DNA of 64,000 nucleotides, from positions 32,001 through 96,000 of the forward strand of contig CAWJPJ010000005.1 in NCBI GenBank assembly GCA_963844715.1. Reading direction: 5' to 3'. The DNA is from an uncultured Phycisphaerales bacterium. Its GTDB lineage: Bacteria; Planctomycetota; Phycisphaerae; Tepidisphaerales; Tepidisphaeraceae. The notes under the pieces were generated by a model, which was not told the origin of the DNA, ran no database searches, and was given only the letters and a program-made list of their open reading frames with translations. Below, piece after piece: positions 54,038 through 63,030 of the stretch; the stretch's first letter is position 1, and every line of letters starts with the position of its first letter. The translations under genes and the position numbers were made by a program.

Positions 54038-54433
54038 ATGCTTAATGCGAAGGAGCTGGCTACGATTGCGCAGGCGCGCCTCGGCGATGCAAAAGCATTG
54101 TTGCGGGGGAAGCGCTTCGACGGAGCGGCCTATTTGTGCGGATATGCAGTCGAAATTGCCGTTAAGGCCAGGATCGTGAAGACTTTGAAATGGCCGGGTT
54201 TTCCAGAAAAAGGCGGGGAGTTTGAAGGCCTGGCCAGCTTCAAAACTCATGATCTTCAAATGCTGCTGACGTTGAGCGGTTGGGAAGCTACCATTAACGG
54301 TAAATACCGAGCCGAGTGGTCGAAGGTGGTCAATTGGAAACCGGAATCGCGTTACCAGCGTCCTGGAAATGTGACGCACGTCGCGGCATCTGAAATGATC
54401 GAGAGCGCGCGAGTTCTTGTTGGAGTGTTATGA
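54038..54433 (+). CDS. HEPN-domain protein (putative toxin)
   Basis: DAKALL...AAYLCGYAVEIAVKA, THDL, W...RY pattern. Confidence 0.75.
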   Translation: MLNAKELATIAQARLGDAKALLRGKRFDGAAYLCGYAVEIAVKARIVKTLKWPGFPEKGGEFEGLASFKTHDLQMLLTLSGWEATINGKYRAEWSKVVNWKPESRYQRPGNVTHVAASEMIESARVLVGVL

Positions 54434-54822
54434 ACGCCACGATTAAAGAAAAGCTCAGCGAGTTGGCCGAGAAAATCGCCAAGGCGAAAAGGCCGCTTCA
54501 TTTTATGGCGTTGGTTCACCGCGAGAACATGGCGGACCGCTGGGACCTGCTTATCTCCTCGGATCAGTTATCCCCCTGGAGCCTGGACGCGATCAGATAC
54601 GTCGATTCGGAACTCAAGAAAACGCTAACCTCCGAGGAGGGCCTGACGATCGCCACGATTGTCCCGTTGGCCAAAGACAACGAGATTGTCGTACAGGCGC
54701 TCAAGCATGGTAACGTCCCGCCTCCGGTCTTGGTTGATGGGCTGCATCCGAGCGATTACTACAATCAGTGGGTTCTCCTTTGGCCGAAGAAGCTCGCCAC
54801 AAATGCGGCGCGAGCGGGCTAG
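54430..54822 (+). CDS. Hypothetical partner of the HEPN protein (putative antitoxin)
   Basis: ATGA overlap; RWDLLISS segment. Confidence 0.6.
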   Translation: MNATIKEKLSELAEKIAKAKRPLHFMALVHRENMADRWDLLISSDQLSPWSLDAIRYVDSELKKTLTSEEGLTIATIVPLAKDNEIVVQALKHGNVPPPVLVDGLHPSDYYNQWVLLWPKKLATNAARAG

Positions 54823-56695: not shown

Positions 56696-57394
56696 TTATT
56701 TTCTCTTCCGCATCACAAACAAATAATTAAATCCGCGCAGATAGTAATTCCCTTCTTCCGCCGCCGCCCGGTAGTTCCCCATCTTCAGCGTCTTGTTATG
56801 CCGAGTGACGGCGATTACGTCGATTGGGATCAGCCGCTTGCTCAATAGGGAGAACAATTCAAACCCAATCGGGAAAAATCCCTTCCCCTTCACGAACGAA
56901 TCGCAGACGTAAAGCCCCATATATCGCCCCGGCTTGAGCACCCGCGCGATTTCCGAAATCACCTGATCCATGGCGCTATAATACGCAGGCTCGGCCGCGT
57001 CGAGTTTCCCGATGCAGCGCGGATCATCCGAGTAATGAATATGAGTCGAGTAGGGGGGATCGATGAAAACAAAATCCGCCTTCTCGCTCTCCAGCGGCAG
57101 CTTCCGCGCATCGACGCGGTAGATGTCTTTTCGCGTCGGAGCCAGATCGTAGCCCAGCGCCCGCCGATCCAGATCGCGCGCGACATCCAACGTCGTCCCG
57201 CTCCCCGCGCAAGGATCGACGACCAGATCCTTAGGCTTGGTATACCGCTGCAAAAGATTCCAGATAATATAACTCGGCGTCGCCCCCTGATACCCCGGCA
57301 CGCCCTGCTCCCCCTCCCCGTAATCCTGCGAAGGATAATCCCACAACGTCGTCGCCTGAACCCTCAACTCCGGCTTCTTAAATTTCGCGCCCAA
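56696..57394 (-). CDS. SAM-dependent amino-methyltransferase (N6/N4 DNA MTase / TRM11-like)
   Basis: VDPCAGSGTT (motif I) and FIDPPY (motif IV). Confidence 0.8.
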   Translation of the reverse strand: MGAKFKKPELRVQATTLWDYPSQDYGEGEQGVPGYQGATPSYIIWNLLQRYTKPKDLVVDPCAGSGTTLDVARDLDRRALGYDLAPTRKDIYRVDARKLPLESEKADFVFIDPPYSTHIHYSDDPRCIGKLDAAEPAYYSAMDQVISEIARVLKPGRYMGLYVCDSFVKGKGFFPIGFELFSLLSKRLIPIDVIAVTRHNKTLKMGNYRAAAEEGNYYLRGFNYLFVMRKRK

Positions 57395-57401
57395 TTATCC
57401 G

Positions 57402-57471
57402 CTCCTAATCTTTCTCCGACTCTTACTCTTAATCCTCTTCGTAATCTTAATCATAATCTTAATCCTAATCT
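57402..57471. repeat. Hexamer array (TAATCT/TACTCT)
   Basis: cctaatctttctc..tcttactcttaatcctcttcgtaatcttaatcataatcttaatcctaatc. Confidence 0.88.
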
Positions 57472-58315
57472 CCCCCCGTCTTCCGCGCCTCCCTAGCCCG
57501 CGCCGCCGCCCGGCAATCGTCAATCCATTTCCGCAGCGCGTCCGCCTGTTCCTCCGTGCACACGATGTCGGCGTCGACGGCACAATTGCTGCCGGGAACA
57601 AAGATTCTGAGTCGATATCGTCCCGATTTCAGCGCGTCCAACTCGGCAACACCTACTCGGCTCCAGGCGGTCGCTGGATAAAACGCCTCATTTCGATCCG
57701 TGATCGCCGAATCAGAAATCAGCGCCAATCTCCTCCGAAACCGGCGCACGCGACCCAAAACCAAATCGCCACCCCCGCGAGGATTGGGCAGAAAATCCAA
57801 ACCCACGCTGCTGCAACATGACCCAGGAAGTGAGCCAAGAACAGCAATAGCGCTGCCGCCGTCGGAATGACCCAGCCGTGCGCCCGCAAAAGTTCCATTT
57901 CGAGCCCCGGCGTCGGAAGTGTGTCATATTGAACGCATGCTGCCCCGTTCATGCGGATCTGCGACCGCCCCGGAAACAAAAGTTTCTGCCGCCGTATCAA
58001 GTGGAACAACTTCGGCCCGACCAGCATCACGAGTACGAATAGCGGTCCGAGCCCCCTGACACTACCGCGCAAAATAATTGACTGCGGCAGGAACGCGAAT
58101 AGGAAAAACGCCAGGATCACCAGCAGCCACCACATTCTCGCGCCCCTGGCATTCCCCAAATGTTCCCGATACCCCCGGCCCCACCCATAAAGGACGATCT
58201 CATCCTGATCATTCTCGCGCCCGCACTCCGGACACTTTCCCCCCTCCGGCAATCCCACCAGCGAATAACCGCAGTTCGGACAAATCGTCGTCTTGAGACA
58301 GTTCGGAACCACCAT
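57465..58315 (-). CDS. Zn-ribbon membrane protein, paralog 2 (frameshift ~57790)
   Basis: CPNCGYSLVGLPEGGKCPECG; TMs; DRNEAFYPATAW. Confidence 0.75.
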
Positions 58316-58329
58316 CGTTCTCCCCCAGG

Positions 58330-58368
58330 ATCATAATCGTAATCATAATCTTAATCGTAATCGCAATC
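58330..58368. repeat. Hexamer array
   Basis: atcataatcgtaatcataatcttaatcgtaatcgcaatc. Confidence 0.9.
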
Positions 58369-58383
58369 CCCCGGATGACGGCT

Positions 58384-59217
58384 TCAACTCCGGGCCACAG
58401 CCACCCGATACGCGAGCCAATTCTTCAACTGTTCAGCCTGTTCAGCGCTGCAAAGGATTTCCGCCTCGATCAACATTTCCTCCGACTTTCCGCGTTCATT
58501 CTCGGAGATTTGTAAATGAAACCGGTGTTCCTTGACCCGGCGGAGTTCAAAAAATGCGATCTTCCTCCATGGCGTTGCCGGGAAATACGCCGCGTTCCGG
58601 TCGGCGATGGCTCCCGGCTCGAGCCGCCGGAGCTTCTTGCGGAATCGCCGGCAGTCCAAACCCTTGGCTAAACTTGCCACCAGAAGAATCGAAAAGGTTA
58701 TCCATCCCCAGGGTCGAGGGAAGCGGCCGGCCCAGCACAACACAAATATTGCGATCGCAGGTATTAGACTAAGCAGCCACCCGTGCGATTGATACAATTC
58801 CTCGTACAAAGACGGCTGAGGCAACGAATCAAATTGGACACGACTTCGCTCGTTAAGTCTGATCTGGACGCGGCCGGGAAAAGAGGTTTCGCGGCGGGCG
58901 AAAATTTCCCAAAGTTTGGGCCCCACGATCATCAAAACAAATAGAGTCGAGAGGAAGTCGGCCGGGCCTCTCATCCACCCCATTATTTTCAAGACTTGAA
59001 AAGTTATCACGGCTATCAATGGGGTAACGAACCAGATCGCTCGCGAGCCTTTGGCGGTGAGAAAAGTCTCCCGCCGTCCGCGGCCCCAGCCGTAAAGTAC
59101 GATCTCGGTTTGATCGTATGCCCGTCCGCATTCGGGGCAGGTTCCGGCTTCGGGCAAGCCCTGCAGCGAATACCCGCAGTTCGGACAAATCGTCGTCTTG
59201 AGAGAATCCGGAATCAC
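58384..59217 (-). CDS. Zn-ribbon membrane protein, paralog 1
   Basis: CPNCGYSLQGLPEAGTCPECG; TMs; DRNAAYFPATPW. Confidence 0.8.
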   Translation of the reverse strand: MIPDSLKTTICPNCGYSLQGLPEAGTCPECGRAYDQTEIVLYGWGRGRRETFLTAKGSRAIWFVTPLIAVITFQVLKIMGWMRGPADFLSTLFVLMIVGPKLWEIFARRETSFPGRVQIRLNERSRVQFDSLPQPSLYEELYQSHGWLLSLIPAIAIFVLCWAGRFPRPWGWITFSILLVASLAKGLDCRRFRKKLRRLEPGAIADRNAAYFPATPWRKIAFFELRRVKEHRFHLQISENERGKSEEMLIEAEILCSAEQAEQLKNWLAYRVAVARS

Positions 59218-59233
59218 TATCGTTCTCCGTCGG

Positions 59234-59358
59234 GTTCTTAATCATAATCGTAATCATAATCTTAATCGTAATCGCGATTTCTCCCGCGCCCTCGATTCCC
59301 GCCCCATCGGAAAGTCGCGATTAAGATTATGATTACGATTATGATTAAGATTAAGAAC
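59234..59358. repeat. Complete inverted pair of hexamer arrays ('empty' element)
   Basis: gttcttaatcataatcgtaatcataatcttaatcgtaatcgcga ... tcgcgattaagattatgattacgattatgattaagattaagaac. Confidence 0.92.
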
Positions 59359-59369
59359 AGGAGCCAGCC

Positions 59370-60578
59370 ATGAGCAAAGTCCGAGTCCTTGTCGGCACGA
59401 AGAAGGGGGCCTTTGTCATCAACTCCGACGGCAAGCGCAAAAAATGGGAAATCAACGGCCCATTCTTCGGCGGCTGGGAGCTTTATCACCTCAAAGGGTC
59501 ACCAGCCGACCCCAATCGGATCTATGCGTCCCAATCCAGCGGCTGGTTCGGACAGCAGGTTCAGCGCTCCAGCGACGGCGGGAAAACATGGGAAGCGGTC
59601 GGAAATAAATTCGCCTATGAAGGCGCGCCCGGCTCACATCTCTGGTATGACGGAAAGCCTCATCCCTGGGAATTCAAGCGAGTCTGGCATTTCGAGCCGT
59701 CCCTGAACGATCCCGACACGGTTTACGCCGGCGTGGAAGATGCCGCCTTGTTTCGCTCGACTGACGGCGGAAAGAATTGGCACGAACTCCCGGCCCTGCG
59801 CGAGCACGCCACCGGTCCCAAGTGGCAACCCGGCGCGGGTGGCATGTGTCTGCACACCATTCTTATCGATCCGAAGAATCCCGATCGAATGTATATCGCC
59901 ATTTCCGCGGCCGGCGCCTTTCGCACCGATGATGGCGCAAAATCGTGGAAGCCGATCAATCGCGGGCTCGTGTCGAACTTTATGCCCGATCCCACCGCCG
60001 AGGTCGGGCATTGCGTCCATCACGTCGCCATGCATCACTCCAAGCCCGATGTCCTCTTCATGCAAAAGCACTGGGACGTGATGCGCAGCGACAACGCCGG
60101 GGATACTTGGAAGGAAGTCAGCGGAAATTTGCCGACCGATTTCGGCTTTGCTATCGACGTCCATGCCCACGAACCCGAGACGATTTACGTCGTCCCCATC
60201 AAGAGCGACTCCGAGCATTATCCCCCCGACGGAAAGCTGCGCGTCTACCGCAGCCGCACAGGCGGAAACGAATGGCAGCCGCTGACCCGCGGACTCCCGC
60301 AAAAAGACTGCTACGTCAACGTCCTTAGAGACGCCATGTCCGTCGATTCACTGGATCAATGCGGAATCTATTTCGGCACCACCGGCGGCCAGGTTTATGC
60401 CTCCGCCGACGCGGGAGAGACATGGAACGCCATCGCCCAAAATTTGCCGGCGGTTTTGTCGGTGGAGGTCCAAACGCTGCCTTCGAACGGCGAAAATATA
60501 AGGCGGATTAAGATTAAGAGTAGGATTAAGATTAGGAAGAAGAGTAAGAGCAAGAGAAAGAATGGGAGGGTGAGATGA
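59370..60578 (+). CDS. BNR/Asp-box beta-propeller (sialidase-like) protein with repeat-derived basic tail
   Basis: Multiple S.DGG.[TN]W Asp-boxes; VGTKKG start; GGAG RBS. Confidence 0.9.
60506..60560. repeat. Hexamer array upstream of the four-helix-bundle gene
   Basis: gattaagattaagagtaggattaagattaggaagaagagtaagagcaagagaaag. Confidence 0.88.
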
Positions 60579-60973
60579 TGGCTGACTCAGAGAGCGGGTT
60601 TGACCATGAAAGGCTCGAGGTCTATCGGGAGGCGATAGCTTTCAATGCGTGGCTTTCCAGTGTTCTGGAAGAGGCGGTGCGCGTCGGAGATGTCAAAGAC
60701 CAACTCGACCGTGCCTCCACTTCAATTCCACTCAACATCGCCGAGGGAAATGGAAAATACTCCCCCAAAGATCGGTGTCGGTTTTTCGAGATCACACATG
60801 GATCCGCGCTCGAATGCGCGGCGGGTTTGGATGTACTTGTCGCCAAGGCGAAGTTGACGCCGGAACAGATTCGACCTGGGAAGGCGGCTCTTCAGAAAAT
60901 CGTGCGAATGCTGATGGGGTTGATTAAACGGAACTCGACTCGAGATTACAAGCCGGAGGCCGAAGAGGATTAG
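60575..60973 (+). CDS. Four-helix-bundle protein (23S rRNA IVP / TIGR02436 family)
   Basis: [41 protein letters not shown]. Confidence 0.93.
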
Positions 60974-61027
60974 GATTAAGAGTAAGATTAAGATTATGAA
61001 GATGATTAAGAGAAAGATTATGATTAA
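60967..61027. repeat. Hexamer array downstream of the four-helix gene (interrupted by IS)
   Basis: ggattaggattaagagtaagattaagattatgaagatgattaagagaaagattatgattaa. Confidence 0.9.
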
Positions 61028-61921
61028 GAGCCTCTAACAAAAATGCACTTCCCCATGTTTATGGTTGATCGGACAATACGGCTTGGTCTTAGCCATGGAG
61101 GGCTTTATGACCAAGCCGTTGGTGACCGACGAGCTTTGGGAGTTGATCCGACCCCTGCTTCCCAAGCACCGCAGTGGTCCAGGAAAGCGCGGCCGGCCGC
61201 CGCTGGACGATCGCGCGGCGTTGTCGGGTATTCTGTTCGTGCTCAAAACCGGCATTCCGTGGGAATACCTTCCCCAGGAGATGGGATGCGGCAGCGGCAT
61301 GAGTTGCTGGCGTCGACTGCGCGATTGGAACCATCGTGGGGTTTGGACGAAGCTGCACGGACTATTGCTGAATCGATTGCGGCGGTCGAATGCCATCGAC
61401 TGGTCGCGGGCCTTGGTGGATTCTGCTTCCGTGCGGGCCGTGCACGGGGGAAAAAAACGGGTCCGAGCCCGGTAGATCGCAGGAAAAACGGTTCCAAGCA
61501 CCATGTATTGACCGATGGCAACGGCACGCCGATGGTTGCCCTCCTGACGGCGGCCAACCGCCACGACATCACGCAACTGCTGCCGCTGATCGATGCGATT
61601 CCAAAGGTCTCGGGCAAACCGGGCCGGCCGCGCTGGCGGTTCGAGGTGGTGCAGGGAGACCGGGCGTATCACTCCGAACCGCACCGAAAGGCGTTGCGTC
61701 AGCGTGGCAGCCGCCCGTTGCTGGCCCGACGCAACCGCCCGCACGGAAGTGGTCTTGGCAAAACCCGCTGGCCGGTGGAGCGTACGCTGAGTTGGTTGCA
61801 TCAGAATCGCCGACTGCGAGTCCGTTACGAAAAACGGCCCGACATCCACGCCGCGTTCATGACCGTGGGTGAGGCAATGATCTGTTGGAACAGGCTTCAT
61901 TCGCATTTTTGTTAGAGGCTC
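61028..61921 (+). mobile_element. IS5-family insertion sequence (IS427-like two-ORF organisation), 894 bp
   Basis: Perfect 19-bp TIRs gagcctctaacaaaaatgc; TAA on both flanks (61025-27, 61922-24). Confidence 0.95.
61107..61915 (+). CDS. IS5 transposase, -1 frameshift at G5A7 (61446-61457)
   Basis: ORF1 DELW..GRPP..GIPW..LP; ORF2 GSKHH, GDRAY, RWPVERT..W..RRL..RYE. Confidence 0.92.
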
Positions 61922-61973
61922 TAAGATTCGGATGACCCGACGCGTCTAACTGGCCCGCCGCCCGCACCAGCCG

Positions 61974-62055
61974 ATCCTAATCTTTCTCTTACTCTTAATC
62001 TTACTCATCTTCATAATCTTACTCTTACTCTTACTCTTACTCTTAATCCTAATCC
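61974..62055. repeat. Hexamer array, inverted relative to 60967-61027
   Basis: Reverse complement begins ggattaggattaagagtaaga, identical to the start of the 60967 arm. Confidence 0.9.
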
Positions 62056-62074
62056 GACTTCTCCCCACATTCCG

Positions 62075-62438
62075 ATGATCCGCGTACTATTACCCCAACA
62101 TCTCCGCACCCTGGCCAACGCGGACGCCGAATTGAAACTCGAAGTCCCCACCCCAGTCACCCAGCGAAAAATCCTCAATGCGCTCGAAGCCAAATACCCC
62201 GTCCTCAAAGGCACAATCCGAGATCACGGTAAAACCGAACGCCGGCCTTTGGTCCGGTTCTTCGCCTGTGGCGAAGACCTCTCTAACGAATCGCCTGATG
62301 CGCTTTCTTCCCGAAGCTGTGGCCAACGGCAGGGAACCTTTCATCATCCTCGGCGCCATCGCTGGCGGAAACGCGCGGAAACCCGAAACCAGAAATCCGA
62401 ATGACGAATCAATTCCGAATGCCCGAATGCTCGAATGA
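62075..62438 (+). CDS. MoaD/ThiS family ubiquitin-like protein (frameshift ~62305)
   Basis: [33 protein letters not shown]. Confidence 0.85.
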
Positions 62439-62511
62439 ACGAAAAGGCATTTCGGTCATTCAGTCATTCGGGCTTGATTCGTCATTCTGGTTTCGGGTTT
62501 CGGGTTTCGGC
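62375..62511. repeat. Palindromic element, family F
   Basis: Arms near-identical to 1813-1941. Confidence 0.9.
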
Positions 62512-62967
62512 GTGCTCTCCAACCCGATAACTTCCGGCCGGTGCTCGCATCGAAATCGCGACTCGATTCCAAGCGTTAATCGCCGCCAGGAGCCAGGTCA
62601 GATCGACAATTTCCTTTTCAGAAAAGTGCGACCGCGCCAGATCGTAAATCGCATCGGGAACATGACGATTGGTGATTTCCGTCAAGGCTTCCGTCCATTC
62701 AAACGCCGCCCGTTCCCGCTCGCTGTAGTAGGGTGATTCGCGCCACGCATCCAATCCATACAACCGCTGCTCGCTCTCTCCCGCCGCCCTGGCGTCTTTC
62801 CAGTGCATGTCGATGCAATAGGCGCATCCATTCATCTGCGAGGCCCGCAGCTTCACCATATGCATCAATCCCTTTTCGAGCCCGCACCCGGCCAGATATT
62901 GCTCCAAACTCGCCATCGCTCGATACGCATCAGGCGCGATTTTGACAAAATTCAATCGAGGATTCAT
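62482..62967 (-). CDS. Carboxymuconolactone decarboxylase / AhpD-like protein
   Basis: LRASQMNGCAYCIDMH, WRES..YSERERAA, INAWNR; GGAGG RBS. Confidence 0.93.
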   Translation of the reverse strand: MNPRLNFVKIAPDAYRAMASLEQYLAGCGLEKGLMHMVKLRASQMNGCAYCIDMHWKDARAAGESEQRLYGLDAWRESPYYSERERAAFEWTEALTEITNRHVPDAIYDLARSHFSEKEIVDLTWLLAAINAWNRVAISMRAPAGSYRVGEHAETRNPKPE

Positions 62968-63030
62968 AGCAGGACCTCCAATCTGATAAACCTGCAAAGA
63001 TGGTAGGCGAATCCCGCCGCCCGCCCGGAC

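Follow-up and report, generated by a model that had tools for sequence, protein, structure and literature searches.

How a small gene for a four-helix-bundle protein came to lie among tandem arrays of a six-nucleotide repeat, and what its product might do with that repeat, is the question raised by a locus of an uncultured Phycisphaerales bacterium, whose relatives point to a planctomycete, probably of the Tepidisphaeraceae. The window analyzed is a 64,000-nt stretch of contig CAWJPJ010000005.1 (positions 32,001-96,000; G000:C5:32001-96000), and all coordinates without a contig name refer to it. A first-pass annotation of this DNA had proposed a gene-plus-repeat system without its own transposase, occurring in gene-bearing and gene-less forms, and this proposal is supported here. 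Gene and repeat are truly linked, far more often than chance allows, within a gene-plus-repeat system of wide distribution; the first-pass outline is right, and its account of this particular locus is too specific. The cassette in the window consists of the following parts:

60506-60560, forward strand: arm A1, a G-rich hexamer array of five units, a GAAGAA spacer and three units
60575-60973, forward strand: four-helix-bundle gene (PF05635/TIGR02436, 132 aa), belonging to the hexamer-associated clade
60967-61027, forward strand: arm A2, a G-rich hexamer array of five units, a GAAGAT spacer and four units, interrupted by an insertion sequence (IS)
61028-61921, forward strand: IS5-family element of 894 bp, with a TAA target duplication within A2
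61925-61973, no strand assigned: rest of A2 and loop of the A2-A3 hairpin
61974-62055, reverse strand: arm A3, an inverted array of 13 units

The three arrays were present where the first-pass annotation had placed them, and A2 and A3 showed the exact 21-nt identity starting from their outer ends that it had described. The start codon of the four-helix gene follows the end of A1 after 14 nt and its stop codon falls inside A2. A GATTAT-GAAGAT block is common to A2 and A3 and missing from A1. A3 is also inverted relative to A1 (79% over 62 nt), with A2 competing for A3, and alignment scores of 38, 36 and 38.5 fail to separate the three arms. The cassette is flanked by protein genes and not located inside an rRNA gene, and no Rfam match near the gathering score was obtained in 57000-63000. 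Short-read contigs were identical to the window over 60243-60738, 60967-61491 and 61896-62039, the best run possibly being the source sample; as these contigs agree across the array, gene and IS junctions, an assembly artefact could be ruled out there.

In a genome search 405 relatives were matched, of which the best 80 were kept; they come from several phyla and have 51-84% protein identity. A hexamer arm was found within about 330 nt of the gene in 77 of these 80 relatives, compared with 15 of 694 control windows, and an earlier array detector gave 78/80 and 12/839, respectively. The enrichment of arrays beside the gene, which had been suggested as a check, is therefore far beyond the controls. 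Chance microsatellites were ruled out by the control windows and by run-length counts. At 78 PF05635 loci outside the clade, a set from which rows placed in the clade by the tree were excluded, no hexamer arm was found (0/78); some tandem array was present on one side at 73 and on both sides at 57 of them (controls 37/264), mostly with units of 7-9 nt.

The covariation of protein clade and repeat unit that had been anticipated could be recovered in a tree of 109 of the 160 usable rows (L021-L100 thinned). All 36 rows with a period of six fell within one clade of 38 (Shimodaira-Hasegawa-like approximate likelihood ratio test 99) and none outside it, and the period label changed 17 times on the tree versus 48 times when shuffled. 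Nine rows of the clade were also recovered by the family search, eight of them with period 6. Three rows on a deep branch of the clade (L142, L150, L179) retain period 6 with other unit words. In one clade member, L138 from genome G315, units of 7 nt make up a long upstream array and units of 6 nt the downstream one, which may reflect a switch in unit length. Tandemly amplified composite repeats with hexamer arms and decayed four-helix fragments were seen at L199-L201 of genome G121.

The same link was apparent at the level of genomes. The source genome holds 34 hexamer arms and one clade gene. Among 60 relatives, a denominator that includes the unpublished G004, the clade gene was present in G002 and G005, the sole genomes with at least 18 strict pattern matches, and in none of the 58 others. 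Among 300 genomes of the phylum it was present in three of the five with at least 25 pattern matches and in one of the 295 others; the thresholds for array-rich genomes were set after the counts were known and kin are not independent, so that Fisher values overstate the effect. In five of six genomes the arms flanking the gene best matched the gene-less arrays of their own genome, compared with a selection of loci per foreign genome.

In the best 80 relatives the arms were arranged as T-gene-G in 35 cases, G-gene-T in 13 and G-gene-G in one (G and T denoting G-rich and T-rich arms), and plain inverted arms were found at 48/80. Inverted arms are thus the rule and pure same-orientation flanks occurred once in 80, which does not bear out the first-pass idea that the gene enters one arm via the arrays. 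Among the 16 loci of the close subclade (identity of at least 70%; one genome contributes two loci), G-gene-T was the preferred order (nine loci). Both arms of a cassette mirror each other, with a cosine of 0.57 compared with 0.21 for other loci (54 pairs).

Copies of the repeat that carry no gene lie close to the cassette:

59234-59358, no strand assigned: hexamer hairpin without a gene, located between divergent genes, its T-rich arm coming first
58330-58368, reverse strand: solo hexamer arm, just upstream of the open reading frame (ORF) 57719-58315
57409-57470, reverse strand: solo doubled arm of five units, GAAGAG and five units, just upstream of the methyltransferase ORF 56696-57394

In the hairpin at 59234-59358 each G-rich strand stops shortly ahead of a start codon, and its folding z of -9.4 was not equaled by any of 200 shuffles. 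Gene-less pairs had the order T-loop-G in 19/19 foreign cases and in five of six of the source genome, the exception being 60967-62055. The two hairpins of the window are accordingly of opposite polarity, with the T-rich arm first at 59234 and the G-rich arm first at 60967, and G-loop-T polarity recurs at the BNR junction of relatives (L006, L007, L028, L029). These polarity counts make 59234-59358 an ordinary member of the repeat population and the polarity of A2-A3 that of a G-gene-T cassette. The inverted pair that the first-pass annotation had pointed out is hence present and belongs to the same hexamer population, but with its reversed polarity it is not the empty form of the cassette. 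The arms are tandem hexamer runs and not palindromes, and many arrays are solo arms, incapable of forming a local stem. On the G-rich strand, about 10 of the 34 arms of the source genome have a start codon no more than 25 nt from their end (crude ORF calls, no control).

The arms share a unit count. Five units precede the GAAGAN spacer in 12/15 doubled hexamer arms of the source genome and in 6/11 elsewhere, and in T-gene-G cassettes five units plus GA were the mode in upstream arms (30/46) and were found in 23/46 downstream arms. In three heptamer families runs of five cores numbered 53, 13 and 31, and longer runs three, zero and two, respectively; a fourth small family and the octamer family had too few runs to assess. 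Arm lengths cluster at 31-36 nt, with a mode of 31 nt for 7-mers and 35 nt for 8-mers. Five is the single count common to the 6-, 7- and 8-nt families and depends on the register chosen.

The four-helix protein scored 68.7 bits against PF05635 (cut-off 33.8) and 67.4 against TIGR02436 (cut-off 24), which agrees with the family assignment made in the first-pass annotation. An AlphaFold model with a predicted local distance difference test score of 87 gave 2GSC (Xcc0516) and 2RLD as best Foldseek matches (E 1e-5 to 3e-3), followed by Avd, the accessory protein of diversity-generating retroelements (DGRs), to which the fold likeness corresponds to a template modeling score of about 0.7 at ~10% identity. 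The entries 2GSC and 2RLD each have five chains, and from these and the title of the 2GSC paper as cited in PMC10053308 a pentameric assembly is predicted for the window protein. The residues Q43, R46, S50, N54, E57, S77 and E80 are polar and conserved family-wide. In 8/8 pairs compared, nonsynonymous divergence (dN) was 0.08-0.16 with synonymous sites at or near saturation, which indicates that the protein is maintained under purifying selection; recent movement is not demonstrated by these values.

The source genome has seven PF05635 genes, and each adjoins a different array family. One sister gene with heptamer arms lies inside a 23S rRNA gene of this genome. Three of the seven (C8:462889, C4:133092, C4:89907) are frameshifted or contain stops, decay and assembly error not being distinguished. 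The four-helix gene at C8:124889-125209, which has a single heptamer arm, lies between the copies of a diverged direct repeat (~120 bp) of the upstream gene's 3' end, a pattern expected from single-crossover integration.

Inverted tandem arms with units of roughly 9 nt were also seen at 4/4 GxxExxY (PF13366) genes (C5:125272, C8:285363, C4:188058, C6:1180713), and an array family of 9-nt units beside a GxxExxY gene has four units. These arms look like a parallel system with a nuclease fold.

The history of the locus was followed at the junction between the two host genes:

59370-60578, forward strand: BNR-repeat host gene, without the ortholog stop after EVQTL, reading through A1 into the four-helix start
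62075-62371, forward strand: MoaD/ThiS-like host gene, with a frameshift near 62296 and no stop after the GG motif

The MoaD label is weak, since the Pfam ThiS match (E 0.05-0.07) is below the cut-off; the orthologs have a C-terminal GG. The frameshift may be an assembly error; its site lies outside the short-read contig coverage. Of 27 BNR orthologs from other genomes all but two could be parsed, the exceptions being L020, a distant paralog, and L225, in which the motif was not matched. As stated in the first-pass annotation, orthologs end at or near EVQTL, and direct succession by the MoaD-like gene was seen as an overlap of stop and start in 8/25. A short spacer without a clear array was found in another 8/25, hexamer elements in three (L006, an empty hairpin; L007, two hairpins and the gene; L008, an arm at the contig end), other repeat families in three (L004, L010, L229) and other genes in three. 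The gene was never found at a BNR-MoaD junction without arrays, so that both checks named as possible refutations of the first-pass proposal turned out in its favor. From these junction counts it follows that the inserted state is derived, and that the junction accepts several repeat families.

A protein search added two gene-bearing BNR junctions, L028 and L029 (L033 is the L007 junction and was counted once). The four gene-bearing junctions show four arm orders: G-gene-G-T here, and GT-GT-gene, GT-gene-T and GT-gene-G in the others. The BNR tree, in which most of the branching is open, leaves the four array-bearing junctions ungrouped, and a single clade for the four BNR-linked four-helix proteins was neither shown nor rejected (approximately unbiased test, P 0.17). 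As far as these sequences go, trees cannot separate a single insertion at the BNR junction from several. Between the two hairpins a 16-nt repeat of the BNR 3' end is present in L007 only, and relatives are too diverged to fix the ends of the element. Most likely, the locus is a worn and rearranged copy of the G-arm/gene/T-arm cassette of its subclade. Duplication or recombination would have supplied the extra G arm, the junction being one into which such elements have come more than once; entry of the gene into one arm is one of several possible routes.

The IS5-family element is a later passenger and the last arrival at the locus. It has 12 near-identical copies in the genome, five of them within hexamer arrays (61028-61921 of the window, C5:176898, C6:452042, C6:865713, C6:932691). 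Hexamer arrays contain 73 of the 7837 matching target sites, which gives a binomial P of 5e-8 for 5/12 copies; this value rises to 1e-3 if only one eighth of the sites is usable. A contig in run X4 carries an IS5 copy within the 59319-59358 arm.

Several known systems resemble the locus in part. The Coxiella intervening sequence (IVS) in helix 45, with S23p, involves the same protein family and a small ORF between complementary arms (PMC4990558), an arrangement that A1 and A3 may form here, where A2 competes for A3; a sister cassette of the source genome lies in 23S rRNA as well. The cassette in the window, by contrast, lies between protein genes, has tandem hexamer arms with ~30 gene-less relatives in the genome and carries a gene under purifying selection, the Coxiella ORF being described as decaying. 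With REPIN-RAYT (bioRxiv 10.1101/2021.07.10.451892) it has in common a single-copy gene set between copies of its own repeat, numerous gene-less inverted pairs outside genes, repeats that are more numerous where the gene is present, and no occurrence found on the plasmids or phages searched. Unlike REPIN-RAYT, it has no HUH/Y1 transposase, the flanked gene is a PF05635 member, a tandem 6-nt array takes the place of the palindromic REP, and the site of the gene varies widely from one relative to the next.

Avd (PDB 4DWL, 8UB7) has the same fold and has been published as an RNA-binding pentamer with five equivalent crevices; all five protomers contact one RNA stem-loop, flipped bases enter the crevices between them, and Avd is described as not directly involved in chemistry (bioRxiv 10.1101/2023.10.23.563531). 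A DGR was ruled out for the locus because no reverse transcriptase was found beside the gene or in the source genome (85% complete); no template/variable repeat pair was seen, none having been sought. Unexplained intergenic heptamer arrays, in which copy numbers of about four to five prevail, have been described for TAACTGA (PMC4679880) and GGGAATC (PMC4692102), often as inverted pairs or just before start codons, and MacGregor proposed that a repeat-binding protein may be the mobile element (PMC4679880). In contrast to these heptamers the repeat of the present cassette has units of six nucleotides, and its subclade has doubled arms. A term search did not find the PF05635 family named in the available text of either publication. 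Its location sets the locus apart from rRNA IVSs, the lack of a Y1 enzyme and of a palindrome from REPIN-RAYT, and the lack of a reverse transcriptase from DGRs. It is concluded that the locus is a PF05635 member, built like an rRNA IVS and distributed like REPIN-RAYT.

For the role of the protein, the explanation favored here, tentatively and with ample room for its being wrong, is that the predicted pentamer recognizes single-stranded RNA of its own hexamer repeat and so holds a genome-wide set of gene-less copies under selection, while host recombination moves the pieces. The predicted ring would read about one hexamer unit per subunit, and thus five units on a single strand. In TRAP, a ring-shaped RNA-binding attenuation protein, each subunit takes up one short repeat of a single-stranded RNA; its fold and ring size are unrelated to those of the four-helix protein, and the likeness is one of analogy. 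RNA would be the target rather than DNA, which is favored because of Avd, the sister cassette in rRNA and the arms ending near start codons. Binding would compete with pairing of the arms. At gene junctions, among them the start of the four-helix gene itself, 14 nt behind A1, it would thereby alter translation or cleavage by RNase III, and such control would keep the repeats under selection where the gene is present.

Arms and gene would be moved by host recombination, to which movement is assigned because no catalyst was found. No PF00078 reverse transcriptase match was obtained in the source genome (85% complete) and none beside the gene, 0/5 Y1 transposase genes had tandem arrays within 600 nt, and no phage or plasmid vector was matched in IMG/VR, PLSDB or INPHARED at the thresholds used. 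The polar residues conserved throughout the family leave a catalytic role open.

A number of observations weigh against this explanation. Most hexamer rows entered the set because they resemble the query, the match of clade to unit could be plain co-inheritance of a cassette, and the repeat dialect may follow host GC content or kinship; the arms of G219 resemble G220 better than their own genome. The clade gene was not found in the array-rich G117 and only as fragments in G121, nor was it found in G007, G010 and G036, which have a few arrays, and G315 carries it without a match to the array pattern. The count of five is affected as well, since a heptamer arm holds only four complete units and 3 nt more, so that the register decides whether it is called five, Rehm 2015 counts four units, and an arm length of 31-36 nt could also fit a fixed stem length. 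The similar inverted arms at all four GxxExxY genes mean that the design is not exclusive to PF05635, and Coxiella S23p appears not to be made in vivo (PMC4990558).

In a rival explanation the arms are simply the stem of an IVS-like insert that RNase III would cut from mRNA, the protein doing something unrelated, gene-less arrays being debris copied by the host and the unit match reflecting shared descent. This is unlikely, though it deserves serious attention: the same design lies within 23S rRNA of the source genome, RNase III excises the Coxiella IVS (PMC4990558), the arms mirror each other and cluster in length, and some array-bearing genomes lack the gene. A bare stem does not account for a hexamer consensus that persists across several phyla, at 51-84% identity, despite changing polarity, length and host site, nor for arm length growing with period, as a constant number of units would predict better than a constant length, nor for the many solo arms unable to form a local stem. 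That the protein is itself an enzyme that copies or joins the repeats, and so stands in for RAYT without a transposase while the gene-less hairpins act as its non-autonomous elements, is distinctly improbable. It would suit the single gene per genome in 6/6 genomes compared, each with many gene-less copies of the same dialect, the seven conserved polar residues, the reverse transcriptase not found in the source genome and the Y1 genes without arrays. Against an enzyme stand the lack of a known catalytic motif, the non-chemical part described for Avd (bioRxiv 10.1101/2023.10.23.563531) and the saturated synonymous divergence, by which no recent movement is shown. Likewise, no clear target duplication was seen for the cassette, for which relatives are diverged, and contigs from five runs held no excised circle, skipped or gene-less form, although at their low depth absence cannot be shown.

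Mobilization of the arms in trans by the GxxExxY nuclease, a Y1 transposase or IS5, with the four-helix gene as passenger, is very improbable. The inverted arms at the GxxExxY genes and the IS5 copies within hexamer arrays speak for it, but the former have different units of roughly 9 nt, the IS targets arrays with its own duplication and ends, and a passenger would not follow one unit across phyla. Least credible of all is that the repeats are portable promoters or ribosome-binding elements selected by the host, which in another register read as runs of TANNNT boxes. Arms do end near start codons in the crude count given above, and TAACTGA repeats lie just ahead of start codons in Beggiatoaceae (PMC4679880). 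A sigma-70 scan, however, gave no site in any arm and one site in 57300-62600 compared with 2.7 expected, and promoters would neither extend to the 7-9-nt families nor explain the tie to one protein clade.

Further features were noted around the cassette. A hairpin of the heptamer/octamer family (62374-62512) lies directly 3' of the MoaD-like gene, whose frame enters it without a stop. On the reverse strand, 57465-59217 contains ORFs that are paralogs in tandem (75% identity over 233 nt); they start with CxxC...CxxC and have hydrophobic segments, and the two longer ones each begin just behind a hexamer arm. At 54038-54822 an ORF with a HEPN domain is followed by an overlapping ORF of 130 aa, likely a pair of the toxin-antitoxin type.

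PF05635 is a widespread family with solved structures and without known function, and the intergenic bacterial repeats of 6-9 nt have been described so far without a known binder or means of spread. A link between gene and repeat was not found reported in full-text literature searches, with subscription papers and supplements outside their scope. It is conceivable, although doubtful, that four-helix pentamers are replication factors of transposase-free replicators, each clade reading and copying or joining a five-unit array of its own 6-9-nt word; if true, this would unite PF05635, ORF-bearing rRNA IVSs and the short tandem repeats filling many bacterial genomes as one system. For the favored explanation, binding of the repeat by the predicted pentamer, the match of clade to unit gives a direct experiment, in which protein and ligand are named, five subunits are predicted to meet five units, and natural mismatched pairs of one genome serve as controls. 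If binding holds, PF05635 would be a set of small rings that differ naturally in the RNA or DNA word they recognize, and rRNA IVSs would be one case of a genome-wide element. What PF05635 does and where short bacterial repeat families come from could thus both be approached with one binding experiment.

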